Of a stretch of 24,000 bases of DNA, positions 3,492-22,615 are shown in pieces. Source of the stretch: Acidimicrobiaceae bacterium (GTDB taxonomy: Bacteria; Actinomycetota; Acidimicrobiia; Acidimicrobiales; RAAP-2); contig PLWZ01000027.1 in assembly GCA_003151235.1 (NCBI GenBank), positions 39,257 through 63,256 of the forward strand. The letters run 5' to 3'. The translations under genes were made by a program, and so were the position numbers. Positions within the stretch are counted from its first letter, which is position 1; every line of letters starts with the position of its first letter. The notes under the pieces are model-generated. The model worked only from the letters and a program-made list of their open reading frames with translations. It was not told the DNA's origin and ran no database searches.

Positions 3492-3562
3492 TGCATCACT
3501 TATAGTCGAACTAGATCGACTCTGCCCCGTTTCGCGATCTAGAGGGCCCTGAAGCCGAGAGC

Positions 3563-3694
3563 TTACGGCTTTGCTGCGTCAATCCACCTCTGAACCGGGG
3601 TATCGGCAATGCGCCGCGAGCCCGGCAGATGAGCCCATGATCGGAAACGAGACGTCTCATCCAGAGATAACAAACCCCATGCCCGCCTCGAGCT
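3563..3694 (-). pseudogene. Remnant of an Lsr2 C-terminal (DNA-binding) domain, with no credible start codon
   Basis: Manual minus-strand translation gives ...LSLDETSRFRSWAHLPGSRRIADTPVQRWIDAAKP*. This matches 23 of 35 positions of the C-terminus of the intact Lsr2 at 5278-5601 (LSPDEKSRFRAWAQLPDTRRIVDARVQSWIEAGKP*). An in-frame TGA at 3697..3695 bounds it upstream, and the only possible start is an internal TTG. Confidence 0.5.
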
Positions 3695-3772
3695 TCAGAC
3701 GCTAAGCGTTGCGGAGCCGTTCACCACGGTGAGCAGTGAAGTCGCCTTTCCGTGGAGGATTTCCCGGCTGCA

Positions 3773-5119
3773 TCAAAATGACGATAGATCGCGCCCAACA
3801 AACTCTAGGCAAGCACGCCATGCTGTCTTTACAGTGCCATCGGCCGGATCTCGAAACCAGACTTCCCCGAATTGGCGGTTTTGATTCCACTCCCACGAGA
3901 CCTCCTGTCCCGCTTGGTAGTCCGTTCGGGTTGTCGGAAAGATGCGCAGGGTCGACGTGCCATCAGGGCTAGCTGTTCGGAGAATCACTCCTCGCGCCTC
4001 GTCGATCTCCGATTGGCCGGCTTCGTCATTGAACAACGGAACGTCCATGAATTGAACGAAGTTGTGATCCCGAGGAGCCGACCGCAAAGCTCGCACTATC
4101 TCAAGTCCCGAGTCAACTGCGTCGCGGAGGACCGTAGGGTCAACGGCGCTTCCCTGCTGCGCAATGAGATTCTGAACTGTCGAGAACTGTCGAATCGCTT
4201 GAAGAGTCCCTGGCTCGAGGTTGGCGGCCTCCTCGATTGTTTGGATCATCTGATCGAGAGAACCGAGGACCGCATCGGCGTGGCCAGTAGCCGCCAGCAA
4301 ACGACGGAGCTCTTGCTCAATTTCGTCTGCAACTTGGTTTAGGGACGATCGTGGTAAGCCTGCCCCGGCAAGGTTGCTGATCAGGTCGAAGCTCATCGAT
4401 CGGGGGGCAAGCGCGAACTCTTCTACACGCTGGCCGATCGGACCGGTGGTGTCGATTGCTGTCTCTTGATTCTGCGACGGCTCGGTCGTTGGCCGCGACA
4501 GACCCTTTTTGATTGCCGCTACAGTTTGAGCCGTTTCACTCTTGAGTTGGTTCACTGCTTCGGCCGTTTCGGCCTTATCCAGGCGCTTGGGTAGTGAGAG
4601 CCGGCTCCAGAGGTACAGGAACACAAAGCCACACACGGCGTAGAAAAGGACCACGGCGAGCCCGAAGCCTGCGCTGGATGGGCCGCCGCCAAATCCATTA
4701 CGCAGGGCGTTGCCGAGCTCGCTGAGGGCTTTTGGAGCTCGGCCGAGCTGAACCAAACCGGCACCGACGAGGATTTTGGTCAGCCAATCCGAGACTTGGA
4801 CGAGGTTGTCGTTTCCCTGATAGCGCAGATTTGCCGACGTGACGCCAGAACTACCACTGGTGTCTTTCGTCATAGGCCGCGGTATTCCGAATAGAAGCCC
4901 CAGAAGTGCCCCCGCAAATCCAGAGGCACCAGCCGTGACTAAAGCTGTGCCCAGGACAGACCAGGCCTCGTGTCGCGGGAACTGCAGGATGTAGAAGACG
5001 CAAGCGACAATCCCGCATGCGGCGAGCAAGGGAATGACCAGCCACCAATCGAGCCCGCTAGGCCAGCCTTGCTTCGGCTTGTCAGCCATTAGCCGGAGTA
5101 TTGCAGGACCGGCGACCAA
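3773..5119 (-). CDS. Hypothetical integral membrane protein: four predicted N-terminal TM helices plus a soluble C-terminal region
   Basis: 448-aa ORF. Hydrophobic segments are WWLVIPLLAACGIVACVFYILQF, WSVLGTALVTAGASGFAGALLGLLFGI, ILVGAGLVQLG and GFGLAVVLFYAVCGFVFLYLW. The start is uncertain (TTG 5119 or ATG 5089, neither with a clear SD). I recognised no family. Confidence 0.6.
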   Translation of the reverse strand: MVAGPAILRLMADKPKQGWPSGLDWWLVIPLLAACGIVACVFYILQFPRHEAWSVLGTALVTAGASGFAGALLGLLFGIPRPMTKDTSGSSGVTSANLRYQGNDNLVQVSDWLTKILVGAGLVQLGRAPKALSELGNALRNGFGGGPSSAGFGLAVVLFYAVCGFVFLYLWSRLSLPKRLDKAETAEAVNQLKSETAQTVAAIKKGLSRPTTEPSQNQETAIDTTGPIGQRVEEFALAPRSMSFDLISNLAGAGLPRSSLNQVADEIEQELRRLLAATGHADAVLGSLDQMIQTIEEAANLEPGTLQAIRQFSTVQNLIAQQGSAVDPTVLRDAVDSGLEIVRALRSAPRDHNFVQFMDVPLFNDEAGQSEIDEARGVILRTASPDGTSTLRIFPTTRTDYQAGQEVSWEWNQNRQFGEVWFRDPADGTVKTAWRACLEFVGRDLSSF

Positions 5120-5277
5120 ATTACAACAGAGATCATAGGCGGCCGATGGTGATACCCCTTACTCACCAACTAGCTAATGTTCGCCCCGTTTACCGAGGAG
5201 TTCAATGCACGCCTACAACAGTGGATTTAGTTTGACTGTGGCCCGTGTCGCGACCTGGGGAGCCTAAGTCTTCGAGA

Positions 5278-5601
5278 TCAGGGTTTGCCTGCCTCGATCC
5301 ACGACTGAACCCGGGCATCGACGATGCGCCGGGTGTCCGGCAGCTGGGCCCATGCTCGGAAACGAGATTTCTCGTCCGGAGATAGCCTAGAGAATAGAGT
5401 GCTCCCCCGGCGGGCTGGAGAACTCTTACCGACGGTGCGAGCCTTTTCTACGTACGGCTTCAGAGCCGAACGAAACTGCTCAAGGTTGGACTCGCTTAGG
5501 TCGATCTCGTAGGACTTGCTATCGAGGGAAAAAATGACCGTGTGGTGAGCATCTCCACCATCGAGGTCGTCGATCAGTTTTACAACCACCGTCTGGGCCA
5601 T
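5278..5601 (-). CDS. lsr2: Lsr2-family nucleoid-associated protein (xenogeneic silencer)
   Basis: From ATG 5601..5599 the product starts MAQTVVVKLIDDLDGGDAHHTVIFSLDSKSYEIDLSESNLEQFRSALKPYVEKARTVG.... This parallels the mycobacterial Lsr2 N-terminal dimerisation domain (V.V.L.DD.DG...T..F.LDG..YEIDLS..N...). It is followed by a basic linker and a C-terminal FRAWA...RRI...V..W domain. The longer 158-aa track ORF is probably an upstream in-frame extension. Confidence 0.8.
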   Translation of the reverse strand: MAQTVVVKLIDDLDGGDAHHTVIFSLDSKSYEIDLSESNLEQFRSALKPYVEKARTVGKSSPARRGSTLFSRLSPDEKSRFRAWAQLPDTRRIVDARVQSWIEAGKP

Positions 5602-5614
5602 GGGCCAAGACTTT

Positions 5615-5688
5615 ACACAATGTGTGCGACCTCTCACAATTTGTACCAACTCTGACAATTTGTACCGACACCCACCGTGTGTACCGAC
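5615..5688. promoter_or_regulatory. Cluster of four related ACA(N)TGT-core palindromic half-sites directly upstream of lsr2
   Basis: acacaatgtgt (5615-5625), acaatttgtacc (5636-5647), an identical acaatttgtacc (5655-5666) and gtgtgtaccgac (~5677-5688). Spacing is ~19-21 bp in a locally AT-richer stretch starting 14 bp upstream of the lsr2 ATG. Confidence 0.35.
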
Positions 5689-5789
5689 TCGCCGGCGCTC
5701 CGATGCCAGCGTGGATTGACGTCGCCTGACCTGGGACAGGCGCCAGTCACACATGGCGCCGGGAACCGCAGGTAGAGGAGAACCCGTGT

Positions 5790-5960
5790 CTATCGGAAAG
5801 TCAATAAGTCGATACGATCAAACGCCCAGTCTTGGAGCAACTCGTCCGGAAGGTGATCGGCGTCCTCAGGCCGCAAATACGGAACGATGCGCACGGTGAA
5901 CACTTGGCCCGGCTCGACTAATTGCTGGAGCTTCTCTGTGACTACGACGCGAACGCTCAT
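5790..5960 (-). CDS. Possible small protein (56 aa), below the ORF-track cutoff
   Basis: Manual translation gives ATG 5960..5958 -> MSVRVVVTEKLQQLVEPGQVFTVRIVPYLRPEDADHLPDELLQDWAFDRIDLLTFR*, with TAG at 5792..5790. The composition is balanced, unlike the Arg/His-rich overlapping track ORF 5866..6051. A GGAG sits ~14 nt upstream. No homology recognised. Confidence 0.3.
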   Translation of the reverse strand: MSVRVVVTEKLQQLVEPGQVFTVRIVPYLRPEDADHLPDELLQDWAFDRIDLLTFR

Positions 5961-6063
5961 CAGCGTCAGCTGGTGCTCCAGCCTCGGGCGTAATAATCCA
6001 ATTATGCCAATCTATTGACTGCCAATCGGTGACCTGATTTGGCAGGCACAACCCGATCGCCGA

Positions 6064-6831
6064 TTACGAATTCAGCTGGAACGGGTCTGGCGATGGCCGG
6101 GTGACGTTCAGTTCACAGGCAAAGTGATCCGCCCCTCGCATCCCGGTGACAAAGAGGCGCCCGTCTGCTACGACCGGGACTCCCTCCTCGCTCATGTGCT
6201 GCAGCGTTGTTCGATACCCCTGGGCCACGGCGTCTCTAAAGTCGCTGCCCAAGATCTCGGTGTGAAACGAGACTTGCAAGCGTCGGCCTGCCGGCATGTC
6301 GAGCAGGGCCGCCGCCTGATCACCGGCTCCGTCGACGGCCATGACGACACCCGGTTCATTGATCGAAATAGTGACCACCGTGATCCAGTCCCGGGCTGGC
6401 ACTCCCACAAACTCGACCCCTCGCCACTTGAGTCCAGCTCGCATGGCCGGAGTCAGAGTCGACTCCGAGGGGAAGAAGAGGAGGCGATAGCCGACCGTCA
6501 CGCCATCTTCTGGAGCCGGGCGATCCCAGACCATCCAGGCACGATCCTGACCAGGACGTCGAAGATGCGCTGTCGCAGCGGCCTTCTCCCCCGTCACCCC
6601 GACTCTCCAGCGCTCACCGTGAAGGCTGACCTTCAGCTCCTTGTAGTTGTCGCGGCAAGCAATGTAGGCGTCTGGACCGTGCGCCCAGACCTTCCAAGAC
6701 AACGAAGAGAGTCCATGCTCACCACCCAGGGCAAATCGCAGTTCGGAGGCCATCGCACGATTGTGCCGGATCGGTGTGACGGCCAGCGGACTCGGATAGC
6801 CCGCTCGTCGGCTGAAGCGGCGCCCGCCCAT
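6064..6831 (-). CDS. Hypothetical protein
   Basis: 255-aa ORF with natural-looking composition (...SELRFALGGEHGLSSLSWKVWAHGPDAYIACRDNYKELKVSLHGERWRVGV...). The overlapping 303-aa plus-strand ORF (6124..7035) is Arg/Ser/His-rich shadow sequence. The start could instead be ATG 6753. Confidence 0.55.
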   Translation of the reverse strand: MGGRRFSRRAGYPSPLAVTPIRHNRAMASELRFALGGEHGLSSLSWKVWAHGPDAYIACRDNYKELKVSLHGERWRVGVTGEKAAATAHLRRPGQDRAWMVWDRPAPEDGVTVGYRLLFFPSESTLTPAMRAGLKWRGVEFVGVPARDWITVVTISINEPGVVMAVDGAGDQAAALLDMPAGRRLQVSFHTEILGSDFRDAVAQGYRTTLQHMSEEGVPVVADGRLFVTGMRGADHFACELNVTRPSPDPFQLNS

Positions 6832-6879
6832 GTCGAATGCCCAGTGGATCAGATCGGTAATCGGTGGTCGGAGGAAGTC

Positions 6880-7293
6880 CTAATCGTGGTTTATGTCATT
6901 GGGATTGACGCTGGTGATTGTATTGCCCAGGCCATTGCAAGCGGCCACCATGGCGGAGAGAGTCTTCAGTTGGGCCGGGTAGTCCTGCGAGACGTTTTCC
7001 GAGGCAAAGTCAGAATCCAGCCCAAAGAACGGTGATCCGGCGGCTTGGGCTTCGTCGCTCAGGGTTCCGAGGGTATCCGCAGCGTTTGGATCGAAGAAGA
7101 AGTTCGCCCCTTCGCTGTTCACTCCGATGACGACCTTATTGATCACGCCACAGATGGCCAGATGCTGCGGCATCGATACCGCTGATGAAGGTTGATTCGA
7201 GGACGAGTTCACGGGCGGCAAACTCGAACCACACCCCGTCAACAGACATGCGCAGCATGCGACGGCGATTGTCAGAATGGCCTTGAACTTCAC
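6880..7293 (-). CDS. Putative lipoprotein
   Basis: GTG 7293..7291 is preceded by AAGGA about 8 nt upstream. The product begins VKFKAILTIAVACCACLLTGCGSS, i.e. a signal peptide plus lipobox L-T-G-C. The longer 202-aa track ORF is an upstream extension. Confidence 0.65.
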   Translation of the reverse strand: MKFKAILTIAVACCACLLTGCGSSLPPVNSSSNQPSSAVSMPQHLAICGVINKVVIGVNSEGANFFFDPNAADTLGTLSDEAQAAGSPFFGLDSDFASENVSQDYPAQLKTLSAMVAACNGLGNTITSVNPNDINHD

Positions 7294-9039: not shown

Positions 9040-9155
9040 AGCAGGGCCTCAAGTGCGGGCAGGAGGCTTGCCCGGGCCGTGCCATTGCCGAAGCGGCGGT
9101 TTGAGTGTGTTCGAAGCCAGGGCCATCCACCAAGCTGGGCCAGATCATTGGAATC

Positions 9156-10259
9156 ATGGTTGTTCAAATGTCTCTTCAAGCCCGACTTCGCTCAGTCGAG
9201 ACCCAAGTTCTCGCCGAAAAGTTCCTGGTCTATGCCAGCAGCAATTGCACCGCTGTTGAGTGCCGAGCGCTCGCAGGTCGAGCCGATGGACTGGTCGTAA
9301 AGCAGGCGAACCGGACTGTCCTAAATGCTGCGAAATCGTCGGGATTTAGCGGACTCGTCCTCCTCGATCCCGCTGAATATGAACGACGGACAGGTCCGTC
9401 AGAGACAATCGTGCAAAGCCTTCTGGGCCAAAGAGACGCAATTTCCATTCAGCAGGAAGAAGAGGTCGACGCTTATCTCTCCCCGTCGGGCTACATCCCT
9501 GATGGAGATGTTGGTCTCCTCATGCGAGTGATCGAGGACGGTGCCGCTTTCTGTGCCGAGACAACCTCGGCATCTCACGTGGCACCAGCGTTCATCGTGC
9601 TTCCTGTGGGGAGCGCGTGGCTGGCACGAGACTCAGACCGTCGCGTTCTGATTGCAACTGCTCAAGCTTGTGGTTACCCCATCGCTATCGTCCTGGGTTC
9701 GGATTTCGACCCACTGAGCTCTCGAACCGCCGTTATCGGCTTGATTGACTTCGTGAGCGCTGTGAACAATGTCCTACTCCTTCGTGCTGACCTCAATTCC
9801 ATCGGTGGCGTCGCTTTAGGAGCCCTTTGCGCCGCGATCGGTGTCGGCACCGCCGGCCGCCACTTTCGCCCGCCGGGCGCACGGCCGAAACGGCGCGGGG
9901 CAACGACCGACAAATCGCCGTCCACACTTTGGATCCCGGGCGGCTCGTTCCATCGCGGATCGCTTTTCGAACACTCTTACGATGATCAGGGATTGCTCAA
10001 TTGTGCGTGCGCTGTCTGTGACGGACGCCACTTGCGACGGTTCGGAGACCCTGCCTCCCGTCCGGAGTCACGACTTCACAGTGTTGCCGGCTGGTACCAA
10101 ATTGCCCAGAATCTGATCGCTCATGATCCCGAAGACCGGCCCAAGGCTTGGCAAGCCCGATGTGAAATGGCGGTCGATGCCACGAAAGAACTGCGTCGCC
10201 GGACCCAGGTTGATTATCGGTCCCCGACGGCACAGATTTGGAAGAGCGTCCTGGGCTAG
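9156..10259 (+). CDS. TGT (tRNA-guanine transglycosylase)/DpdA-like protein; functional call is tentative
   Basis: The ORF is open from GTG 9105, with the first ATGs at 9156 and 9168. It carries a CxCxxC motif (NCACAVC, nt 10002-10019) and a His 20 residues later inside ...SRLHSVAGWYQIAQNLI... (His codon 10077-10079). Upstream lie SIGGVALGA and IGVGTAG, which recall the TGT GGLAVGE and MGVGTP motifs. The order and the GVG-to-CxC spacing resemble TGT; the GG-to-GVG spacing is shorter. Confidence 0.4.
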   Translation: MVVQMSLQARLRSVETQVLAEKFLVYASSNCTAVECRALAGRADGLVVKQANRTVLNAAKSSGFSGLVLLDPAEYERRTGPSETIVQSLLGQRDAISIQQEEEVDAYLSPSGYIPDGDVGLLMRVIEDGAAFCAETTSASHVAPAFIVLPVGSAWLARDSDRRVLIATAQACGYPIAIVLGSDFDPLSSRTAVIGLIDFVSAVNNVLLLRADLNSIGGVALGALCAAIGVGTAGRHFRPPGARPKRRGATTDKSPSTLWIPGGSFHRGSLFEHSYDDQGLLNCACAVCDGRHLRRFGDPASRPESRLHSVAGWYQIAQNLIAHDPEDRPKAWQARCEMAVDATKELRRRTQVDYRSPTAQIWKSVLG

Positions 10260-11143: not shown

Positions 11144-11419
11144 CTAGGTTTATTGTTCTCTGCCTGACAATAGATGCTTCTCGTACGAACACGAAGCCGA
11201 CGGTTTGCACCGGGTGGGTGCTCCAGCGTCGGGTTGATCTTCCGCACCTCACGCCCGAGCGGGTTTGGACCAGCCGGGCGGCGAAGAAGGGCCGCCGTGT
11301 TCGCCAGTCCGGAACTCGGGCCCGAAAAGGCTGGCGGTGACTAGCCGTCGCTCTGTCTGACCGTGTATCGTGGGCGAAGGTGAACTCGGGCTTCGAGTTC
11401 CAAACCGCAGAGGCAGTCC

Positions 11420-12829
11420 GTGCGGATTTTGTCGTCGGTCATACCGACCGCTGAACAGTTACCAATCCTCAACGACAGCCGACCGGGCTTTCGCGTCATT
11501 CGTGGCGCTGCCGGGAGCGGTAAGACCACAACCGCTCTCTTGCGCCTCAAGCAGTTGTGCGCGACCCGGCTCACGCGACGAAATCGCCTCGGTGAGACCG
11601 AGCCTGTTCGAGTGTTGGTTCTCACGTACAACACAACGCTTCAGGGCTATATCGCTGAGCTCGCTCGGTCCCAAGTGGCCGGAGATGCCGGCCTCATCCT
11701 CAACGTGAGTACCTTTTCAAAATGGGCCAAGGATCTCATCGAGAACCTCGCCATCCTCGATCACGGCCAGATCGAAGGGATCCTCCGCCCGTTGCTCCGT
11801 CCCGTCATTCCTGGCTCCGCGGCGATCGAATATTTTTTGCAGGAAGTTGAGTACGTCTTGTCGATGTTTCTTCCGGAGGACCTGCCTAACTACCTGGGGA
11901 TGCGAAGAGAGGGCAGAGGAGGTTCTCCTCGCATCGATCGATCGCTCCGAGAACGCCTTCTAAATGAGGTCATCTACCCGTACGAGGACGTCAAGCTGGC
12001 CCGAGGAAAAATGGACTGGAATGATCTCGCGCTTGAGGCCATCGGCGCTCCTGGCCCGGCTTACGACATCGTGATCATCGATGAAGCCCAAGACTTTTCG
12101 GCCAATCAAGTGCGGGCTGTTATCTCACACCTGGCCGATGATGCTTCTGTCACCTTCGTGATCGACGCCGTGCAGCGGATCTATCCGCGGTTCTTTAGAT
12201 GGAACGAAGTGGGCGTCACGATTCGGCCAGAGCAGAGCTACAGGCTCACCTGCAACCACCGCAACACACGCCAGATTGCTGCGTTCGCATTGCCGCTCGT
12301 CGAGAATCTTCCACTCGAGGACGACGGCTCACTCCCCGACTTCACTACCTGCGAGGAGGAAGGCCCGCTGCCCGAGGTCGTCTCCGGGACCTATAGCCAG
12401 CAACTCGATTACATGCTGGATCGTCTGATCGATCGAGTCGACCTGAATAGCGAGTCGGTGGCGATTCTCCAGCCAAAAGGTGGTGGATGGTTTGCTTTCG
12501 CGCGAAAAGCTCTGCAACTTAGGGGAATCCCATACTGCGAGCTAACGCGGCAGAGCGACTGGCCGGCCGGTCCGGCCAACGTAGGAATCTCTACGATCCA
12601 TTCGGCCAAGGGCTTGGAGTTCGACCACGTCCTCTTGCCGGGAATGAATCGTGAGGTGACCCCCCATGGTCTCGAAGAAGGCGACGGTTCGCTGGAGGGT
12701 CTTCAGCGCCTGTTTGCCATGGGAGTCGGAAGGGCTCGGCGGTCCGTGATCGTCGGGTGCAAGCCGGGTGAAGAATCCACGCTCATCAGCCTTCTCGACC
12801 CAGCGACTTACACGATGGTCAAACTATGA
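11420..12829 (+). CDS. UvrD/Rep-like SF1 helicase-family ATPase (compact, 469 aa)
   Basis: Walker A IRGAAGSGKTTTAL (nt ~11500-11535), Walker B/motif II IVIIDEAQDF (~12067-12096), YRLTCNHRNTRQI (motif IV-like), TIHSAKGLEFDHVLL (motif V) and GVGRARRS (motif VI). GTG start at 11420. Confidence 0.85.
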   Translation: MRILSSVIPTAEQLPILNDSRPGFRVIRGAAGSGKTTTALLRLKQLCATRLTRRNRLGETEPVRVLVLTYNTTLQGYIAELARSQVAGDAGLILNVSTFSKWAKDLIENLAILDHGQIEGILRPLLRPVIPGSAAIEYFLQEVEYVLSMFLPEDLPNYLGMRREGRGGSPRIDRSLRERLLNEVIYPYEDVKLARGKMDWNDLALEAIGAPGPAYDIVIIDEAQDFSANQVRAVISHLADDASVTFVIDAVQRIYPRFFRWNEVGVTIRPEQSYRLTCNHRNTRQIAAFALPLVENLPLEDDGSLPDFTTCEEEGPLPEVVSGTYSQQLDYMLDRLIDRVDLNSESVAILQPKGGGWFAFARKALQLRGIPYCELTRQSDWPAGPANVGISTIHSAKGLEFDHVLLPGMNREVTPHGLEEGDGSLEGLQRLFAMGVGRARRSVIVGCKPGEESTLISLLDPATYTMVKL

Positions 12830-13515
12830 GCGACACGATCGTAGAGGCGGTGCCCCGCGCTCTAAGGGACATCGCCCGGTTGCCGCAGCAGGACGAGGTG
12901 GTCGTCGCTGCCCGACAGCGCGGCATAACTGAGGTACTCCACTTCACAACCACGAAGAACCTCGTTGGGATCATTGCTTCGGGCTACCTCAAATGCCGCA
13001 ACCTCGTGTCTGAGGATCACTACGTCGAGAACGTTTACGACCCGAACTGCGGCGATCGCTCTCGAGACGCCATTTGGACTGGTTACGTCAATATGTCGAT
13101 CAGTCGAATAAATGCCTGGATGTTCCAGTCATCAACGCGATGGCATCTTTCTGACGGTAATAGCTGGGTGGTGCTGGCATTCGACCCGGTAGTCCTGGGA
13201 CACCCAGGCGTTATCTTCGCCACTACGAACAATGCGTACCGAGGCATATGTCTTCGGGCAGAGGGGAAGGCAGGCTTCGATCGAATGTTCGGGGACAGAG
13301 TGCGGGGCTACAACCGTGAGCTTTCTCGGGGGTCGCTAGATCCGAAGTATCCCACAGATAGGTGCGCCGAGGTTCTCTACCCAGAGCAACTCAGCATCGA
13401 ATATCTTACGAAACTTTACGTTCAGATCGAGACCGACCAGGATCACATTCCGGGGATCCTCACCAGTCTCGACTGCCGAATACCCCTTGAGTATGTCCCG
13501 GAGGTTTTCGCGTGA
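12826..13515 (+). CDS. DarT-like (DUF4433-type) ADP-ribosyltransferase
   Basis: 229 aa. VLHFTTTKNLVGIIASGYLK (nt ~12934-12993) parallels the Thermus DarT N-terminus IYHITHIDNLKGILRMGKLL. GYVNMSIS parallels DYVPFYF. RCAEVLYPEQLSIEYLTKLYV (nt ~13360-13422) parallels the catalytic-Glu segment KQAEFLVYKAFPWALIEEIAV. Its ATG overlaps the helicase stop (ATGA, 12826-12829). The comparison is from my memory of the DarT sequence, not from a search. Confidence 0.65.
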   Translation: MSDTIVEAVPRALRDIARLPQQDEVVVAARQRGITEVLHFTTTKNLVGIIASGYLKCRNLVSEDHYVENVYDPNCGDRSRDAIWTGYVNMSISRINAWMFQSSTRWHLSDGNSWVVLAFDPVVLGHPGVIFATTNNAYRGICLRAEGKAGFDRMFGDRVRGYNRELSRGSLDPKYPTDRCAEVLYPEQLSIEYLTKLYVQIETDQDHIPGILTSLDCRIPLEYVPEVFA

Positions 13516-15203
13516 CGGAGGAGCAACCGCGATCGGGTGTGACGCCGCCAATGTTTTCGATGTCCAGAGGCAACGGAGATCGACTCACGCGCACCGTACG
13601 TTCGGCCCTTTGGGCGGCGTATGGAGACGCGCTTGGGTTCATCAGTGAGCTAACTGACAACGAGGGTCTATCCCGCCGGACCAAGGGTCAACCGCTAGTA
13701 AGGCCGATGGCGTGGACTCGGTACGTCGGCGGACGCCAGGGTGTCAAGGTACTTCTGCCATCAGGCTGCTATTCGGACGACACCCAACTCCGACTCTGCT
13801 GTTCTCGTGCGATCGGACCCAGGGGGTTCGATGTCGAAGCGTTCGCAAAGGTGGAACTGACAGTTTGGCCGTCATATGCACTCGGCGGTGGCATCGGAAC
13901 TAAAGCCGCCGCGGCAAATCTGGTCAAAGATCAAGTTGCGTGGTATTGCAATACGTTCAAAGGATGGACGGAGGCTGGGGGTAACGGCGCAGCCATGCGC
14001 GTTCAACCGCATGTTTGGGCTGCCGCTGATCTGGAGTCCTTCGCAAGCTTCACTCCAGACGTCCTCAGAGACGCGATTTGCACGCACGGCAGTCCCACCG
14101 GGATCCTCGGAGCCGTCTTACACGCCATGTGTACCGCTCACGCGATCAGCCGAGGGGAACTTCCTCGACCGCCGGATGTTCTGACAATGATTCAAGCCTG
14201 TGAAGACATTCCAGAGATGCTCATGCGAAATGATCATGAGATTGGTGAGATCTGGCTGGGCCTTTGGAATCGGGAGGCTGGCAGACAGTTCGCTGAGGCC
14301 TGGAGTTCGACAGTCAGCACTGCACGAGAGGCGGTCGGACTGGTCGCAAGCGAAGCTAGTAGTGAGGCGACCAGCTACATGCGGGTTTTGGACATGCTCA
14401 AGCTCTTCGATCCGGCCATCCGAGGGAGCGGATTGTTAACTGCAATCGCAGCCATCGCGCTTTTGTGGATCGAGCCCGATCTGGCGAAGGCCTTGCCTGT
14501 CGCTGCCCAAGCACTGGGTTCGGACACTGACACAATTGCGACAATGGCCGGTGCCGTTGGAGGAGCTGTCGCAACTGGCGATCCGGACGGCAGCATCGCT
14601 GACGAGCGCCTAATCCGAGACGAGGCGACGAGACTGTTTAACTTGGCTGAAGGCGCGGAGCGCCCGGGGCACCGGTATCCGGATCTACTTCACTGGGCAC
14701 CTCCGCGCACACAAGCCGACGCATTGGTCGAGGGCCTGTCCGGCCTTGAGGTTGTCGGTCTGGGACCCGTACGCACTGGAAGTGAGCCAATCTTGGATGC
14801 GCACGGGAACTTCATGTGGCAATGGGTAGAACTCGACTTTGGTCAGAACCTGCTTGTTAAGCGGCGCCGAGTTCTGAACCCGGTCGACGGCCAACACCCG
14901 AAGCGCAGCGGTCCTCAGGTAATGAGAGCTACTGGCGCCAACACAAAACACCAGTCGAGATCGCCTAGACGGCCACGCGGCGAGGCAACATCAGCCGACT
15001 CGCAGGAACCATCTTCAAGCCAGGACCCGAAGCCGCTTCCAATCGATCGAGGCGTCGAACTTGAAACAGCTATTGGCTGGCTCGGTGAGAATGAACTGAG
15101 TGACAAGGCTATCGGGTATGCAATCCGACGAGTTGCTCGAGACGGATCTCCTGAACAGCTTCTGATGCTGATCGGCATCCTCCGCGAACGGCTGAGGCAC
15201 TAA
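13512..15203 (+). CDS. ADP-ribosylglycohydrolase (ARH/DraG family) with a ~190-aa C-terminal extension
   Basis: 563 aa. ARH signatures are ALWAAYGDALGF, CYSDDTQL (nt ~13767-13790), GGNGAAMRV (~13978-14004) and GSDTDTIATMAGAVGGA (~14518-14568). GTG 13512 overlaps the DarT-like stop (GTGA) and has GGAGG 7 nt upstream. The C-terminus has a basic, Ser/Pro-rich linker (KHQSRSPRRPRGEATSADSQEPSSSQDPKP) followed by a short helical module. Confidence 0.85.
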   Translation: MTEEQPRSGVTPPMFSMSRGNGDRLTRTVRSALWAAYGDALGFISELTDNEGLSRRTKGQPLVRPMAWTRYVGGRQGVKVLLPSGCYSDDTQLRLCCSRAIGPRGFDVEAFAKVELTVWPSYALGGGIGTKAAAANLVKDQVAWYCNTFKGWTEAGGNGAAMRVQPHVWAAADLESFASFTPDVLRDAICTHGSPTGILGAVLHAMCTAHAISRGELPRPPDVLTMIQACEDIPEMLMRNDHEIGEIWLGLWNREAGRQFAEAWSSTVSTAREAVGLVASEASSEATSYMRVLDMLKLFDPAIRGSGLLTAIAAIALLWIEPDLAKALPVAAQALGSDTDTIATMAGAVGGAVATGDPDGSIADERLIRDEATRLFNLAEGAERPGHRYPDLLHWAPPRTQADALVEGLSGLEVVGLGPVRTGSEPILDAHGNFMWQWVELDFGQNLLVKRRRVLNPVDGQHPKRSGPQVMRATGANTKHQSRSPRRPRGEATSADSQEPSSSQDPKPLPIDRGVELETAIGWLGENELSDKAIGYAIRRVARDGSPEQLLMLIGILRERLRH

Positions 15204-15218
15204 GAGCAAGCCTATCCA

Positions 15219-15785
15219 ATGTCAGTAGCCGATCAGATTCTGAACTTTGTAAAGACCCTCGTGTGGCCAGCGGTGGTCGTGACGGCCGTGCTTACATTTC
15301 GCCCGCAACTGGCCAGGTTGATTAGCAGAGTGACCGAGGTGAGCGCAGCAGGCGCCTCCGTGAAGTTCAGTGACGAAGTCGACGAACTGGCCGACACCGC
15401 GGATTCTGTGCTTCGCGAGGTGCGAGGTAACTTCGCGCCCGAAGAGACTCCCCCACTGCCGGTTTCGACGCTCCAGGTTGAGAAGGAGCCCACCGCAGCA
15501 TTTCTCGACGCTTACCGAGAGTTGGAGACAGCTGCCCGTGAAGTGGCAGTTGCCTCGGGCGCCACGTCACCCTTGTTGATCCCGGTCCTAAAGGGCCTGG
15601 CCGACAAGGACCTTCTGCCCGACGAGGCAGTGCATTTGGGAGAAGAGCTTCGTAGCATTCGAAATCGTGTCGCTCATGCGCTTCAGCACCTGACCCCGGA
15701 GGATGCAACAGGCCTAGTCGCAGCGGCGAATTCGTTGGCAAATGCTTGCCGTGCGATTACTGAAGGGATCGAGGACCCTGACTAG
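15219..15785 (+). CDS. Hypothetical protein: N-terminal hydrophobic helix plus a C-terminal Rx4H (HEPN/DUF4145-like) helical domain
   Basis: 188 aa. The hydrophobic segment is TLVWPAVVVTAVLTF. The motif ELRSIRNRVAHAL contains R-N-R-V-A-H (nt 15660-15677). It starts 16 nt after the ARH stop on the same strand, with no clear SD. Confidence 0.5.
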   Translation: MSVADQILNFVKTLVWPAVVVTAVLTFRPQLARLISRVTEVSAAGASVKFSDEVDELADTADSVLREVRGNFAPEETPPLPVSTLQVEKEPTAAFLDAYRELETAAREVAVASGATSPLLIPVLKGLADKDLLPDEAVHLGEELRSIRNRVAHALQHLTPEDATGLVAAANSLANACRAITEGIEDPD

Positions 15786-16307
15786 TCACCTCAGACGCCA
15801 GTACCAATACCCCTCGTCGACGTCAGATTCGAAAAATTCCAAAGTGCGTAAGAGCTCCAAAAGTTCCGGCCCGGGATTGTAGAAGGAGCCCACCTGCGTC
15901 GGGGGGTTGTTTAATACCAAAAGTCGCTCTTTCGCGAGGGCTATCAATTGACCCTGGACTTCTAGTCGTTCCGGAAGAGACCAGTTCAAACCATCCCTGT
16001 GGAGCCGGAGCAACCGAAACTCCCAGAATCCGGAGTGCGTCATTCCTGGAAAGCGGCGTTCAAGTACGACGCACGCTCCCCACATTTTCGAATAGCAACG
16101 AGGAAGCTCAGGATCGGGCTCAACTACGACGACGCGGAGACGAGATGTTGGAGCGGCCCCCTTGTCGAAGGGATCCTCCGGATCTAAGAAAAATAGACCC
16201 CGTACAAATTGGTCTATTCGGTCGTCTCCGGAAACAAACTCTTGTAGGACATCTGCGTGTTGGGCTCGGAGAAGGTCAACCTCGAGAGTCGGCCGGACCA
16301 TCGCCAT
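15786..16307 (-). CDS. Hypothetical protein
   Basis: The ORF is open to TTG 16319, with ATGs at 16307 and 16301 and GGGAGG 12 nt upstream of 16307. No family recognised. Its stop codon (15786-15788) directly abuts the stop of the convergent plus-strand gene (15783-15785). Confidence 0.5.
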   Translation of the reverse strand: MAMVRPTLEVDLLRAQHADVLQEFVSGDDRIDQFVRGLFFLDPEDPFDKGAAPTSRLRVVVVEPDPELPRCYSKMWGACVVLERRFPGMTHSGFWEFRLLRLHRDGLNWSLPERLEVQGQLIALAKERLLVLNNPPTQVGSFYNPGPELLELLRTLEFFESDVDEGYWYWRLR

Positions 16308-19402: not shown

Positions 19403-19894
19403 ATGGGACGTTACTCGAACCTCTGTGACCAGGGAGAACGTCTTCGGGCACTGCTCGAAATGGTGCCCGAAGGCCCTTCGACGGCAATTCCGCGAACCAT
19501 CAAGCAAATCCAACGACGACTTCGTGGGGCCGAAATCGACCAGCTGGTGGCCAGCTACCGAGCAGGCGCCACGGTCTACGAATTGAGTGCCCAGTTCGGG
19601 ATGCACCGTCACACCGTGTCGGAGGTTCTAGAGCGACGCGGGGTGTCTCGCCGATACCAGAGGCTCTCCCTGGAGCAGGTCGACTTGGCATGCACCCTCT
19701 ACGAGAGTGGGCACTCCCTGATCAAGGTGGGTGAGCAACTAGGTCGGAAGGCAGAGACCGTACGACAGGCGCTGATGAAGGCCGGAGTTGAGATCAAACC
19801 CCGGAATGGGTGGCACAGCGAGCGAGGCGCTGACGGTAACCATCATCACCGGGATAACCCAGTCAATTTGTATATGCGACCGGAGCAATTGTGA
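19403..19894 (+). CDS. DNA-binding protein with two tandem resolvase/HTH_7-like helix-turn-helix repeats
   Basis: The repeats are EIDQLVASYRAGATVYELSAQFGMHRHTVSEVLERRGV and LEQVDLACTLYESGHSLIKVGEQLGRKAETVRQALMKAGV. The start is uncertain: ATG 19403 has GGGAGG only 2 nt upstream, and ATG 19460 is an alternative. The 3' end overlaps the convergent gene by 32 nt. Confidence 0.6.
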   Translation: MGRYSNLCDQGERLRALLEMVPEGPSTAIPRTIKQIQRRLRGAEIDQLVASYRAGATVYELSAQFGMHRHTVSEVLERRGVSRRYQRLSLEQVDLACTLYESGHSLIKVGEQLGRKAETVRQALMKAGVEIKPRNGWHSERGADGNHHHRDNPVNLYMRPEQL

Positions 19895-21500
19895 GTTCGA
19901 CTTGCTGTCTCCTACATTCATCGACGAGGCGCAGGAGCCGCATACGGCTGAACGAGAACAGGGACTCCGCGTCGATTTTCCTCCGGTTACCCATAACAAG
20001 AACCGCCTGACGCGGTATGTCGGGAATCCATGCCGGGTCACCACCTTGAGCTTCAACGACTTTGATCAACCCGGCGCGTGCCGAAGCATCCTCCCGAAGA
20101 GCTAGTGCCGAGACTCCGGCCTGAGCGAAGAGATGGCTTGCCCCAGTGCTTCTTCCCACGGCCTTCACGTGCACGAACACCCCTTCGGGTGTCAGCACAT
20201 CACAACTCTCAAATCCCCGTGGGTTCGTTTCGCACCGAACGAGTCGGCGGTCAAGATTTACCCCGCCAAGAGCATCAGCGAGAGACCGATTGAATTCAGG
20301 TTCACCCACACCCGTAGGCCACAGCGGCAAGCCATGGATCGGCGGCTCAGCGGCGAAGATACGAGCGAGACGCTCAGAGAGGCGGTGGTTGAGCCCGTCA
20401 TCAACCATGTACCACCGACCGTTATGCATACAGAAGCGGTGCCCAGCGGACGTCGTCTCAAAGGTCACCCACTGCCGGGCTGGAAGCAAGCTACTGGCAG
20501 CTTCATTGTCGTCCGAAAAAGCCTGGACCTTCATCCGATCGAAGCGCCGCAGCCGCTCGCCGTCTGGGAGTGAACGGAGCGGGTCAAGGAGCGCTCCCAA
20601 AGTCATTCCATTCGGATCGTCGTCGCCGCCGAGGATTCCAGACACTCTGAAGTGGGACAAAGGTACGGCTTCGTCGGCGAGCTCGGTGGGCCAAGCCAAA
20701 CCCAGCGTTGGCGCGTCAGAATCACCAAGCGCTGCATCGAGAGCCTGTTCCAGCTCGGGCACATGGGAATCGGAGGACTTCAGCGCTCGGAGTTGCTCGA
20801 TGATCGCCAATTGCGGCACTGGATCGCGTTCGAGTAGCGCCTCGATGGCATCCAGGTCCGCCAAAAGACGCATCCCGTCACGGGCTAAGGGAAGGCTTAT
20901 CGCGTCTGCTCCTCGGATCTCGACTGGATCTCCCCCATCTCCCGCAAGTACTCCGTCCAAATAGGCAGGGCCAACGAGTCGACTGATGAGATCGCCGAGC
21001 TCGCTTGCGCCGAATCCACCGATATCGTCTCCTCCGGGTATAGATGTCCGGGCGACGTAGGCACGCAAGTCGAGCCTGGAATGTGTGATGGACCTGAGGT
21101 TGTCTGGATCAGCACAACGCGCAGCAAGGCGACGACCAAGGCTGGGCACCATTCGGGCGGCTTCAATCAGGTGAAACCCCATACCGAAGCAAATCGCCCA
21201 CACGCAATCGGAGTCGGGATCCCGGGTCGGCAAAAGAAGAACCCCTGCCGCGGTCGTGTTGCCCAACCCAGCGGCGATGGAGTCGTCATTGGTCCAGGTT
21301 GCAACTACGTACGTCCACTTCGCTTGCTGCGATGCCACGGAACCACCCACGAAATAGCCATCCCTGTTTCCCACACGGACCGGAGTGCTCTCGAAGTCAT
21401 CTCGCTCCAGATACTTCGTGCGAAGAACCGTCCCCGGATCGAGAGGACCTTCAACTTGGTAAACGGAAACTCGGGTGTGTGGATTTGGCTGACGCGGCAT
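19863..21500 (-). CDS. TIGR04141/DUF6119-like 'sporadically distributed' protein with a C-terminal PD-(D/E)xK-type motif
   Basis: 545 aa. ATG 21500 has the SD GAGAAGGGGGG upstream. The C-terminal ...FESCDVLTPEGVFVHVKAVGRSTGASHLFAQAGVSALAL... (D ~20199-20201, VHVK 20163-20174) has a D...(x)K nuclease-fold layout followed by SHLF.Q..VS. I recall this layout from the TIGR04141 family, but that is memory-based and unverified. Confidence 0.55.
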   Translation of the reverse strand: MPRQPNPHTRVSVYQVEGPLDPGTVLRTKYLERDDFESTPVRVGNRDGYFVGGSVASQQAKWTYVVATWTNDDSIAAGLGNTTAAGVLLLPTRDPDSDCVWAICFGMGFHLIEAARMVPSLGRRLAARCADPDNLRSITHSRLDLRAYVARTSIPGGDDIGGFGASELGDLISRLVGPAYLDGVLAGDGGDPVEIRGADAISLPLARDGMRLLADLDAIEALLERDPVPQLAIIEQLRALKSSDSHVPELEQALDAALGDSDAPTLGLAWPTELADEAVPLSHFRVSGILGGDDDPNGMTLGALLDPLRSLPDGERLRRFDRMKVQAFSDDNEAASSLLPARQWVTFETTSAGHRFCMHNGRWYMVDDGLNHRLSERLARIFAAEPPIHGLPLWPTGVGEPEFNRSLADALGGVNLDRRLVRCETNPRGFESCDVLTPEGVFVHVKAVGRSTGASHLFAQAGVSALALREDASARAGLIKVVEAQGGDPAWIPDIPRQAVLVMGNRRKIDAESLFSFSRMRLLRLVDECRRQQVELTIAPVAYTN

Positions 21501-22564: not shown

Positions 22565-22598
22565 ATGAGTTACAGGCTACGATGGGAGGGTTGACCAA

Positions 22599-22609
22599 TG
22601 TTATATACT
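22599..22609 (+). promoter_or_regulatory. Candidate extended -10 promoter for a leaderless MerR-helicase transcript
   Basis: tgtTATATACT: a TG dinucleotide precedes overlapping TATATA/TATACT hexamers. TATACT (22604-22609) ends 6 nt before the A of ATG 22616, and no SD is present. TTGACC at 22591-22596 is too close to serve as the -35. Confidence 0.3.
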
Positions 22610-22615
22610 GTTAGT

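Follow-up and report, generated by a model that had tools for sequence, protein, structure and literature searches.

Results of our analysis indicate that three consecutive plus-strand genes of the 24,000-nucleotide stretch of DNA analysed here (the window) very probably constitute a tripartite toxin-antitoxin and anti-phage module of the DarHTG type, in which a UvrD-like ATPase accompanies a DarT-family ADP-ribosyltransferase and an ARH-fold ADP-ribosylglycohydrolase. The verified open reading frames of darH (11420-12829, 469 aa), darT (12826-13515, 229 aa) and darG3 (13512-15203, 563 aa) have the same orientation and are translationally coupled. The ATG start of darT overlaps the darH stop in ATGA (12826-12829), and the GTG start of darG3 overlaps the darT stop in GTGA (13512-13515), exactly as an earlier note made from the letters of the window had described. 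A Shine-Dalgarno-like AGAGG read from the sequence (11409-11413, plus strand) lies 6 nt upstream of the darH GTG, and a GGAGG (13500-13504, plus strand), located within the 3' end of darT, precedes the darG3 GTG by 7 nt. The latter start is supported by the homologues of DarG3, which likewise begin with MT and have a leader of similar length. A search for a sigma-70-like promoter on the plus strand upstream of darH revealed none.

While the earlier note knew of no described combination of a helicase, DarT and an ARH hydrolase, the same trio of E. coli has already been named DarHTG/Liu-DS3 and characterised by phage challenge and mutants (Liu et al., NAR 2026, PMC13069673), and it is called TgaH-DarTG in a preprint of December 2025 (bioRxiv 10.64898/2025.12.08.692795). 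According to Liu et al., the system comprises DarH (UvrD-like, without the 2B domain), DarT and the ARH-like DarG3, which resembles archaeal and eukaryotic ARHs. It protects against phages T4, T5, T7 and SSL_2009a, the phenotype resembling abortive infection, and the defence depends on the DarT active site and on ATP binding by DarH; attempts to clone a DarG3 mutant failed, in keeping with the role of this protein as an antitoxin (PMC13069673). The remaining reading of the earlier note, namely a DarTG-like and probably anti-phage system with an ARH antidote and an added UvrD-like helicase, agrees with this description.

Among 5,426 E. coli genomes, we found the helicase-DarT-ARH arrangement in 21 (0.39%), as one allele only ('near' and 'distant' modes), in agreement with the published frequency of '<0.5% of E. 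coli genomes' (PMC13069673). We take this trio, shared with Salmonella (WP_000699006.1, WP_000151475.1, and WP_001087212.1), to be the system of Liu et al. on the basis of its architecture, uniqueness and frequency, and not of a matching accession number. Sequence comparisons identify the window proteins as full-length orthologues of this sole E. coli/Salmonella trio, with identities of 42% for DarH (E = 3e-133, full length), 36% for DarT (E = 3e-41) and 38% for DarG3 (E = 1e-95, aa 21-452).

The cassette is real and widespread, yet its architecture is already in the literature. Of 80 loci, taken from different species of many phyla, 78 have the order helicase-DarT-ARH and all 80 keep the DarT-ARH pair, so that the recurrent synteny which the earlier note proposed to look for does exist. 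The start/stop overlap of 4 nt is found at 41 of 78 helicase-DarT junctions and at 63 of 78 DarT-ARH junctions, whereas chance would place a start codon at this exact position in about 5%. The neighbours of the trio are not conserved, as the 143 neighbouring genes yielded 126 different Pfam families, each seen in three of them at most. The trio is found on plasmids and in IS- or integrase-rich islands, and plasmid-borne members of the DarH clade are always accompanied by DarT and ARH (4/4 records). It is a self-contained three-gene unit that travels across phyla. Neither a recognised defence system, searched for also with PADLOC, nor a phage or prophage signature was found around the cassette in the window; in other species, Shedu, TIR/Pycsar-like, HNH, methyltransferase, DrmD, and Olokun genes are scattered among the neighbours.

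It could be argued that the cassette serves its present host chiefly for addiction or growth control, stabilising a genomic island or tuning replication, and has no significant part in phage defence. DarTG2 of Mycobacterium tuberculosis reportedly plays such a role, and the location of the trio on plasmids and in islands, the absence of an adjoining known defence system in the window, and the existence of a decayed locus (P0385), where an in-frame deletion removed DarT and fused DarH to DarG3, would be consistent with it. We nevertheless consider this explanation unlikely. It leaves the strong conservation of the ATP-driven DarH motor unexplained (DarH is better conserved than the other two proteins, with 57-75% identity among top hits), it does not fit the defence genes adjoining the trio elsewhere, and the orthologous E. 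coli system gives protection from four phages, for which the activities of both DarT and DarH are required (PMC13069673).

The assignment of darT, made in the earlier note by eye, holds at the level of both profile and fold. Its product matches the Pfam DarT family (PF14487) with an E-value of 7e-24 and 85 bits (cut-off 22.5) and is also recognised as DarT by PADLOC. The best Foldseek match of its AF2 model (pLDDT 90) is DarT1 (8baq, E = 3e-12, TM 0.71/0.77), while the TM values for DarT2 structures are 0.55-0.69. The solved relatives are only the DNA-modifying DarT1 and DarT2, and the only sequence match in PDB is DarT1. The H-x-T and AE[FV]L segments pointed out previously correspond to H39-F40-T41 and A181-E182-V183-L184 and are invariant or nearly so. 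In 81 orthologues, H39, F40, T41, R58, R78, D81, S91, N135 and E182 are conserved in 98-100%, and M99 and F100 in about 85-88%. The active-site residues were mapped by means of the alignment with 8baq and the data of Schuller et al. (2023, PMC11543638). The set that in DarT1 serves base coordination and transfer catalysis (N135, R78, D81, M99 and E182) is kept, and the predicted active site is DarT1-like, i.e., of the guanine type, a point not found in the available text of Liu et al. (PMC13069673).

The product of darG3 belongs to the ADP_ribosyl_GH family (PF03747, 1.5e-24, aa 35-352), and its AF2 model (pLDDT 81) has an ARH fold, with MJ1187 and ARH3 as the best Foldseek matches (TM about 0.7-0.77 on target), a resemblance reported by Liu et al. 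as well (PMC13069673); its closest structures are those of ARH3, ARH1, MJ1187 and the Listeria ART-ARH immunity protein. In the catalytic domain (aa about 29-380, 13596-14651, plus strand), the metal-binding and catalytic motifs are intact and can be aligned to those of ARH3 and MJ1187. Invariant in 32 homologues are G38-D39-A40..G42..S45-E46, S88-D89-D90, G156-G157-N158-G159-A160-A161-M162-R163 and D338-T339-D340-T341. The SDDTQL, GNGAAMR and GSDTDTIA segments, by which the earlier note recognised the family, are all found and show little or no variation.

Behind the catalytic domain, DarG3 carries further modules. A conserved five-strand beta module (aa about 387-452, 14670-14867, plus strand; HRYPDLLHW..GLG..FxWQW..GQxLLxKRR), with strands predicted at 405-452 (pLDDT 80-90), has invariant Y389, P390, D391, L393, W395, P398, D403, G416-L417-G418, F434, W436, W438, G444, Q445, K450 and R452, and matched nothing in Pfam or among PDB sequences. 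It occurs also in E. coli DarG3 and in every inspected tail variant (P0489, P0432, P0430, P0211, and P0189). A variable linker (aa about 461-513, 14892-15050, plus strand), predicted to be disordered (pLDDT below 50) and devoid of conserved alignment columns, separates it from a C-terminal three-helix module (aa about 517-562, 15060-15197, plus strand; helices 517-526, 531-544 and 547-562, pLDDT about 83-88), in which G535 and R539 are invariant and for which databases gave no match. A description of the beta module and helical tail was not found in the part of Liu et al. available (PMC13069673).

In other lineages, NADAR, Mrr_cat or HTH_31 is appended behind the three-helix module, including one variant whose tail has an Mrr_cat nuclease fold and another with a HigA/XRE-type HTH tail. 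In one further variant, represented by a single 3.9-kb metagenome contig, degenerate ARH motifs are fused to NADAR beside a DarT of the same clade and a DarH fragment; this fusion was not found in the available text of Liu et al. (PMC13069673). It suggests that guanine-ADP-ribosyl DNA may be the substrate shared by DarG3 and the NADAR variant.

These tails bear on a further explanation, in which the DarT-like enzyme modifies protein or RNA, the ARH protein confers immunity as a protein de-ADP-ribosylase, in the manner of DraT/DraG, Tre1/Tri1 or the Listeria ART-ARH pair, and the helicase is a target or regulator. In its favour are the nearest structures to DarG3 listed above. The known substrates of all characterised ARH-fold enzymes are ADP-ribose linked to protein (Arg, Ser) or free ADP-ribose, and we know of no ARH-fold enzyme that reverses base-linked ADP-ribosylation of DNA. 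Human ARH3 has no meaningful activity on thymidine-ADP-ribosylated DNA, its activity being marginal on thymidine-ADPr and absent in a DNA gel-shift assay (PMC12879935). However, a true DarT with the DarT1 residues and solved relatives that all modify DNA, DarG3 variants whose tails (Mrr_cat, and NADAR as a hydrolase of guanine-ADPr-DNA) are related to DNA, and a DNA-type SF1 motor as a partner make a protein or RNA target decidedly improbable.

The product of darH matches UvrD_C (3.6e-12), UvrD-helicase (7e-7) and AAA_19 (1e-5) in Pfam, which completes the confirmation of the three domain assignments of the earlier note, and NERD+UvrD (5e-23), GajB and also C3a187 in PADLOC. The full SF1 motif set noted previously is present, and in 69 orthologues Q13, GAAGSGKT (28-36), DEAQD (221-225), motif III (249-255), NHRNT (279-283), SAKGLEFDHV (395-404) and RAR (438-440) are invariant or nearly so. 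The family profile aligns with PcrA at 18-301 and then 555-617, and with UvrD at 167-299 and then 551-616; the about 165 residues missing in between equal the 2B domain in size, and by this alignment 2B is absent. All three predicted active sites are complete, and their conservation in the respective families shows that purifying selection acts on them.

Among proteins of solved structure, the DarH family is closest in sequence to HelD, an ATPase that recycles RNA polymerase (6.8e-17), and its best NCBIfam match is HelD_BACSU. DNA lesions left by DarT are repaired by nucleotide excision repair, in which UvrD is involved, and by RecF. That DarH is a second, UvrD- or HelD-like antidote clearing ADP-ribosylated DNA or stalled polymerases to limit self-damage, in line also with the partial growth after infection that suggests regulated toxicity, is the least likely explanation, as immunity would not need a pure repair factor, whereas the ATP-binding mutant of E. 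coli DarH loses defence with no toxicity reported for it in the available text, the analogous ietH mutant being reported as cytotoxic (PMC13069673).

In the preferred reading of the cassette as a DarHTG-type module, DarT would ADP-ribosylate a base in single-stranded DNA at the expense of NAD+ and block replication. The base would most likely be guanine, at N2, given the DarT1-like active site with Ser for the Tyr of H-Y-E and Asn at the base-coordinating position; this proposal draws on active-site similarity and the NADAR-fusion contig. As a type IV-like antitoxin, DarG3 would keep erasing this mark by means of its binuclear-metal ARH site, and would probably be tethered to DNA, DarT or DarH by the beta and helical modules at its C-terminus. 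DarH, as an ATP-driven 2B-less SF1 translocase, may sense phage replication intermediates or supply DarT with single-stranded DNA, and its action on phage DNA would shift the balance towards modification. The more specific proposal of the earlier note is that the helicase could gate the effector upon detecting DNA ends or replication forks.

Of the known systems, E. coli DarHTG is the most similar, with the same three genes in unchanged order and of similar size (469/229/563 aa vs. 465/221/561 aa), the same 2B-less ATPase, DarT-family toxin and ARH-fold antidote, tight junctions, and a location in mobile, variable islands. The identity is only 36-42%, though, and the window member, from an uncultured, actinobacterium-like source of 57-63% G+C and not from Enterobacteriaceae, is known from sequence alone. 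The junctions are 4-nt overlaps here but gaps of 0 and 9 nt in E. coli, and the extreme C-terminal helical tail of the window DarG3 is not alignable by BLAST.

DarTG1 consists of DarT1, which ADP-ribosylates guanine N2 in single-stranded DNA, and the NADAR protein DarG1 (Schuller et al. 2023, PMC11543638). The window DarT shares with DarT1, its nearest solved structure, the Ser and Asn named above, the R..D pair, Met/Phe and the catalytic Glu, and both systems have an enzymatic (type IV-like) antidote and an anti-phage role. However, the identity to DarT1 is 22%, the guanine specificity is one that we infer here, the antidote has an ARH and not a NADAR fold, and the helicase is a third essential gene. 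DarTG2 combines DarT2, which modifies thymidine N3 in single-stranded DNA, with the macrodomain protein DarG. The DarT fold, the toxin-antitoxin logic, and an antidote with an extra C-terminal region beyond its hydrolase domain are common to it and the window cassette, but the latter has an added helicase and no macrodomain, its DarT is 12-17% identical to DarT2 structures, scores 21.9 bits against the NCBIfam toxin_DarT cut-off of 150, and has Asn in place of the thymine-reading His119.

DarH resembles GajB of Gabija, the NERD+UvrD candidates and Nhi/AbiO as a compact SF1 UvrD-like motor of a defence operon, but has no GajA/TOPRIM partner and no NERD or nuclease domain; from HelD, its best solved match, it differs by the absence of the N-terminal secondary-channel arm. 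An ADP-ribosyltransferase whose product is reversed by an ARH-fold partner is also found in DraT/DraG, Tre1/Tri1 and the Listeria ART-ARH pair (8za7), which act on proteins. The window transferase, however, is not of the DraT or Tre1 type but belongs to DarT and is as such a DNA-type ARTD relative; it is neither a secreted effector nor a nitrogenase regulator, being a cytoplasmic protein that shares its operon with a DNA motor.

The locus in the window is a divergent new member of the DarHTG family, whose architecture is already known. Its three plus-strand genes encode a 469 aa UvrD-like ATPase (darH, gene 1, 11420-12829, GTG start), a 229 aa ADP-ribosyltransferase toxin (darT, gene 2, 12826-13515, ATG start), and a 563 aa antidote of the ADP-ribosylglycohydrolase (ARH) fold (darG3, gene 3, 13512-15203, GTG start). 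Direct reading of the sequence gives caaactATGAgcg at the gene 1/gene 2 junction and ttttcgcGTGAcgg at the gene 2/gene 3 junction, which demonstrates that the 4-nt overlaps between these genes are real. The start sites of gene 1 and gene 3 are supported by the equivalent start positions of their homologues, which begin with "MRIL..." in the case of gene 1 and with "MT...", at a similar leader length, in the case of gene 3. The sequence AGAGG is located 6 nt ahead of the gene 1 start and GGAGG 7 nt ahead of the gene 3 start. The ORF coordinates and the junction sequences confirm the three coupled genes described in the earlier note, and the assignments to the UvrD, DarT, and ARH families made there by eye were all borne out by profile searches.

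While the biological reading proposed in that note was essentially right, its claim that the architecture had not been described is refuted, as the system has been named and experimentally validated in E. coli. Liu et al. described it as Liu-DS3, or DarHTG, in [quoted passage not shown] (NAR, April 2026, PMC13069673; preprint December 2025). It comprises DarH (TgaH in the preprint), which is a UvrD-like helicase without the 2B domain, DarT, and DarG3, which, unlike DarG1 and DarG2, resembles archaeal and eukaryotic ADP-ribosylglycohydrolases (PMC13069673). DarHTG protects E. coli against phages T4, T5, T7, and SSL_2009a with abortive-infection-like behaviour, is present in less than 0.5% of E. 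coli genomes, and is commonest in Thermodesulfobacteriota and Bacteroidota; the construction of a DarG3 mutant was not possible in that study (PMC13069673).

A tblastn search of plasmids with gene 3 led to Salmonella plasmid pIndS104-CTX, which encodes a helicase of 465 aa, a DUF4433 protein of 221 aa, and an ARH protein of 561 aa. At the DNA level, this trio is 99.8-100% identical to an island found in the chromosome of 21 out of 5,426 complete E. coli genomes (0.39%), and no second E. coli allele was found in these 5,426 genomes, also in sensitive mode. There is little doubt that this trio is Liu-DS3, judging from its architecture, its frequency, and its being the only one of its kind in E. 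coli. The window proteins are similar to it over their full length, with identities of 42% for DarH (3e-133), 36% for DarT (3e-41), and 38% for DarG3 (1e-95). In E. coli and Salmonella, DarHTG is followed by a gene for a 1,299-aa YobI-like/KAP P-loop NTPase (12081-15983 in the E. coli locus L087, NZ_CP021722.1), and the L087 island is bounded by tyrosine recombinases and IS elements and lies beside ychF. No published DarT-ARH or DarT-helicase system other than that of Liu et al. was found in the literature searched, and PADLOC-DB 2023 contains no ARH model. The apparent names "DarT3/DarG3" in a preprint on Vibrio DarTG are proteins followed by superscript citation numbers.

The family has a very large membership, distributed over many phyla. 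A scan of the DarT alignment against contigs of one genome per species confirmed 173 relatives, and each of the three proteins is represented by hundreds to thousands of protein clusters at 90% identity. The best 80 of the 173 loci, which we examined, come from Acidobacteriota, Chloroflexota, Pseudomonadota, Spirochaetia, Binatia, Planctomycetota, and many Actinomycetota. Among these 80, a full-length helicase orthologue (45-61% identity) is encoded directly upstream of DarT in 78 loci, and an ARH orthologue (37-49% identity, mostly over residues ~23-562) directly downstream in all 80, so the order helicase-DarT-ARH is recurrent. The overlap of -4 is found at 41 of the 78 helicase-DarT junctions and at 63 of the 78 DarT-ARH junctions, and the former junction falls within -4 to +7 nt in 74 of the 78 loci. 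The genes flanking the trio in the window do not recur across the 80 other loci, barring two weak single matches, one to a 384-aa ORF and one to a 132-aa ORF. The 143 immediate neighbours of the trio represent 126 Pfam families, none of them seen in more than three loci. Integrases are found among these neighbours, along with scattered genes of defence (Shedu SduA, HNH, TIR/Pycsar-like, methyltransferases, DrmD, OloA, and RmrA). Plasmid-borne copies occur in Salmonella, Cereibacter, and Streptomyces. The conserved order of the trio in the absence of recurrent neighbours indicates an autonomous, horizontally mobile three-gene module. A phage or prophage origin of the cassette was rejected, as the search with DarT gave no match in 50,697 phage records, ten genes of the island gave no match in PHROGs, and no tRNA was found. 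RNA elements were sought as well, and no Rfam family reached its threshold. Proteins identical to those of the window trio recur on several metagenome contigs in the same gene context, including a gene of Lsr2, which suggests that the host of the cassette is an uncultured actinobacterium.

Several neighbours of the window trio deserve a separate description. Gene 4 (15219-15785, plus strand), which starts 15 nt after darG3, encodes a 188 aa protein with an N-terminal hydrophobic segment and matches to DUF4145 (2.4e-6) and, weakly, to Swt1-like HEPN. Its absence from all 80 other loci places it outside the core and led us to reject a conserved fourth gene; it may represent an accessory specific to this lineage or an Abi-like gene in its own right. 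Neither the Abi_C tail of P0430 nor the extra tail of P0189, both of them DarG3 variants, shows sequence similarity to its product. Further downstream, a 545-aa DUF6119 protein (6.6e-88) is encoded at 19863-21500 on the minus strand, followed by small unknown genes and, at 22598-24000 on the plus strand, by a gene for a MerR/HTH_17-ResIII-SNF2-Helicase_C protein that runs past the window end. The DUF6119 and ResIII-SNF2 genes are not recurrent beside the trio in other species, and together with the small genes they may form an uncharacterised module of their own, for defence or mobility. In several other loci the trio is followed by ORFs of ~545 aa, which are related neither to one another nor to the DUF6119 gene. 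Upstream of the trio, a 384-aa unknown protein is encoded at 9105-10259 (plus strand); Arthrobacter sp. NPDC058130 encodes a weak homologue of it (25% identity, E = 1e-9), likewise ahead of the trio (2358-3095 in locus L075), and no other flanking gene was seen twice near the trio. A 111-nt direct repeat (3559-3669 and 5274-5384, 78-84% identity) brackets a gene of a 448-aa unknown protein (3773-5119). The second copy corresponds to the 3' end of lsr2 (5278-5754, minus strand), and the first encodes a 36-aa remnant, which we suspect to be similar to the Lsr2 C-terminus. This arrangement suggests an insertion into lsr2 or its partial duplication.

Of the three proteins, DarH shows the strongest conservation (57-75% identity in top matches). 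It matches Pfam UvrD_C, UvrD-helicase, and AAA_19, as well as the PADLOC models of GajB and NERD+UvrD. All its SF1 motifs, including Walker A (GAAGSGKT, residues 28-36) and DEAQD (221-225), show no or almost no variation among 69 orthologues. The profile of the DarH family is collinear with residues 18-301 and then 555-617 of PcrA, and with residues 167-299 and then 551-616 of UvrD. It has about 88 residues where UvrD and PcrA have about 252, and the ~165 missing residues correspond in size to the 2B domain, the boundaries of which we take to be ~378-550 in UvrD (Lee and Yang 2006). The closest solved sequence match of the family is HelD, the RNAP-recycling ATPase. PGAP labels DarH orthologues (e.g., WP_000699006.1) as "3'-5' exonuclease", which is probably misleading, as no nuclease domain could be detected in the window orthologue by domain scans. 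A search for helicase paralogues associated with other effectors yielded only close orthologues (57-75% identity) among the 120 matches listed.

The product of gene 2 belongs to the Pfam DarT family (PF14487, 7e-24, 85 bits vs. the cut-off of 22.5) and also matches the PADLOC DarT model. Its AF2 model (pLDDT 90) is predicted to have the DarT fold, closest to E. coli C7 DarT1 (E = 3e-12, TM 0.71/0.77), with DarT2 structures following at TM 0.55-0.69; DarT1 is also its sole PDB sequence match. The residues essential for DarT1 function were demonstrated by Schuller et al. (PMC11543638). In a phmmer alignment, used here rather than structural superposition, DarT1 F18, D54, M71, F72, and E152 correspond to F40, D81, M99, F100, and E182 of the window protein, S63, which takes the place of DarT2 Tyr71, to S91, and the base-coordinating N104 (His119 in DarT2) to N135. 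DarT1 R52 falls strictly in the column of R80, and the conserved residue is R78. Across 81 orthologues, conservation of all these residues, F40 included, lies at 85-100%, with values of 98-100% for R78, D81, S91, N135, and E182 and of ~85-88% for M99 and F100; the catalytic E182 is kept in 80 of the 81. From this conserved, DarT1-type active site, we infer a DarT1-like specificity of the window DarT for guanine N2.

The only Pfam family found in DarG3 is ADP_ribosyl_GH (PF03747, 1.5e-24, residues 35-352), with about 200 C-terminal residues giving no match. The predicted structure (pLDDT 81) consists of four parts: an all-helical ARH domain (residues ~21-380), a five-strand beta module (~405-452), a disordered linker (461-513), and a three-helix tail (517-562). 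The closest structural matches of the ARH domain are MJ1187 and ARH3 (TM ~0.7-0.77 on the target). Its invariant metal-binding and catalytic motifs, GDALG..SE46, S88-D89-D90, GGNGAAMR, and D338-T339-D340-T341, are intact, and the domain is thus expected to be an active enzyme. The beta module (HRYPDLLHW...GLG...FxWQW...GQxLLxKRR) matches the active site in its degree of conservation and has no sequence match in Pfam or PDB.

An exhaustive search with DarG3 residues 385-563 found this module in 320 representative clusters, nearly all of which are DarG3-type proteins of 540-600 aa. Short matches that might be taken for stand-alone copies start at Met345, a conserved internal residue, and seem to be gene calls that were truncated. 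In the exceptional variants whose sequence or alignment was inspected, the beta module is kept and the tail is changed or extended. In P0432, P0381, and locus L089 (JGI 3300037258, 3023-7070), where the order helicase-DarT-ARH is retained, DarG3 ends in a domain of the Mrr_cat/NA-iREase1 nuclease fold and an IS element adjoins. P0211 has an added HigA/XRE-type HTH_31 domain, which suggests autoregulation, and P0430 an Abi_C domain of HEPN type. P0189 carries ~130 extra residues with no Pfam match and represents a ~713-aa group, to which P0173, P0191, P0197, and P0236 were assigned by similar length. Two of the 80 loci lack the helicase: in a Vicinamibacteria MAG (L033, 4540-6669) its place is taken by Schlafen AlbA_2/HATPase_c_4 in the same ORF as DarT (a stop-free stretch of 710 residues), and in L063 a short-chain-dehydrogenase-like ORF lies upstream of DarT. 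P0385, in which an in-frame deletion fused DarH up to residue ~245, its N-terminal half, to DarG3 from "NAIGTDTDT" on, with DarT gone, looks like a decayed locus that lost its toxin, the expected route of toxin-antitoxin decay.

The most informative variant is P0489, encoded in locus L088 (GCA_039821165.1, JBCBOT010000530.1, 54-2931) together with a C-terminal fragment of DarH and a DarT of the same clade (41% identity, catalytic residues intact). This DarG3 carries an additional NADAR domain, closest to the solved NADAR 8bau and YbiA, and its ARH motifs are degenerate (SDD to SSD, GGNGAAMR to SGSEVATR, DTDT to GCDG, and E46 lost). NADAR enzymes are known erasers of guanine-linked ADP-ribose on DNA, and judging from these sequences NADAR seems to have naturally taken over the catalytic role of ARH in this protein. 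Such a replacement supports DNA as the target of DarT and guanine as the modified base, although the weight of this evidence is moderate, as it comes from a single 3.9-kb contig. A protein or RNA target, with the ARH protein acting as a classical immunity protein, appears unlikely.

We thus consider it highly probable that the family assignment is correct and that the overall logic of the mechanism is as follows, with lower confidence in its details. DarT would attach ADP-ribose to a base of single-stranded DNA and block replication, while DarG3 would remove this mark in uninfected cells. ATP-dependent activity of DarH would be required for immunity, and DarH may recognise phage replication intermediates, translocate on them, or generate single-stranded DNA for DarT. 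Experimental backing concerns the writer role of DarT and the eraser role of DarG3, and the E. coli orthologues only. It seems improbable to us that the cassette serves only addiction or growth control, with no part in defence, in the window host, and we also give little credence to DarH being a repair factor or a second antidote. Anti-phage activity and the neutralisation of DarT toxicity by DarG3 have been reported for the E. coli system only (PMC13069673). The more detailed form of the DNA-targeting mechanism is tentative: DarT would modify guanine N2 in single-stranded DNA, DarG3 would be the first ARH eraser with base-linked DNA ADP-ribose as its physiological substrate, its beta module and exchangeable tail (three-helix, Mrr_cat, NADAR, HTH, or Abi_C) would dock it on DNA, DarT, or DarH, and the motor without 2B would set when the writer outruns the eraser. 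If this is true, the degenerate ARH with the fused NADAR is a natural complementation experiment pointing to guanine-ADP-ribosylated DNA.

The trio represents a major, mechanistically opaque branch of DNA ADP-ribosylation immunity, and the only branch of DarT systems with an ARH-fold eraser. The chemistry proposed for DarG3 would widen the known substrate range of the ARH family, which includes human ARH3, and a toxin-antitoxin pair that needs an ATP-driven DNA motor is a tractable model of the coupling of sensing to effector release. With the architecture published, the remaining interest lies in the ARH-fold eraser of a DarT1-like writer, the modules of DarG3 and its tail variants, and the role of the motor. 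The DarT1-like site, the conserved beta module, the exchangeable tails, and the ARH-degenerate NADAR fusion are offered here as hypotheses for DarHTG.

Comparison with known systems sets the window cassette apart from several of them. It differs from Gabija in that gene 1 matches GajB models only partially and no gene of GajA (ATPase-TOPRIM nuclease) was found adjacent to it. It differs from DraT/DraG and Tre1/Tri1 in that its ADP-ribosyltransferase is of the DarT family by both Pfam and predicted fold. In contrast to DarTG2, whose antitoxin DarG is a macrodomain protein, no macrodomain was found in the cassette, and its DarT has no PDB sequence match to DarT2, reaches 21.9 bits vs. the cut-off of 150 in the NCBIfam toxin_DarT model, and has Asn135 in place of His119, which reads the base in the thymine-specific DarT2. 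With DarTG1, in which DarT1 adjoins the NADAR antitoxin DarG1, it shares the equivalents of the DarT1-type active site, but NADAR was not found in gene 3 or in the window neighbours, and the one place where it appears is the C-terminus of a rare variant in a different organism. The likeness to DarHTG extends to every component. The co-directional order helicase-DarT-DarG3 is common to the window, E. coli, Salmonella, and 78 of 80 species; gene 1 encodes, like darH, a UvrD-family SF1 ATPase without the 2B domain and with the ATP-binding residues needed for defence in E. coli; gene 2 encodes a DarT-family ADP-ribosyltransferase with the catalytic glutamate; the antidote is of the ARH fold, closest to MJ1187 and ARH3, and neither macro nor NADAR; and all three proteins are homologous to those of the E. 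coli prototype trio.
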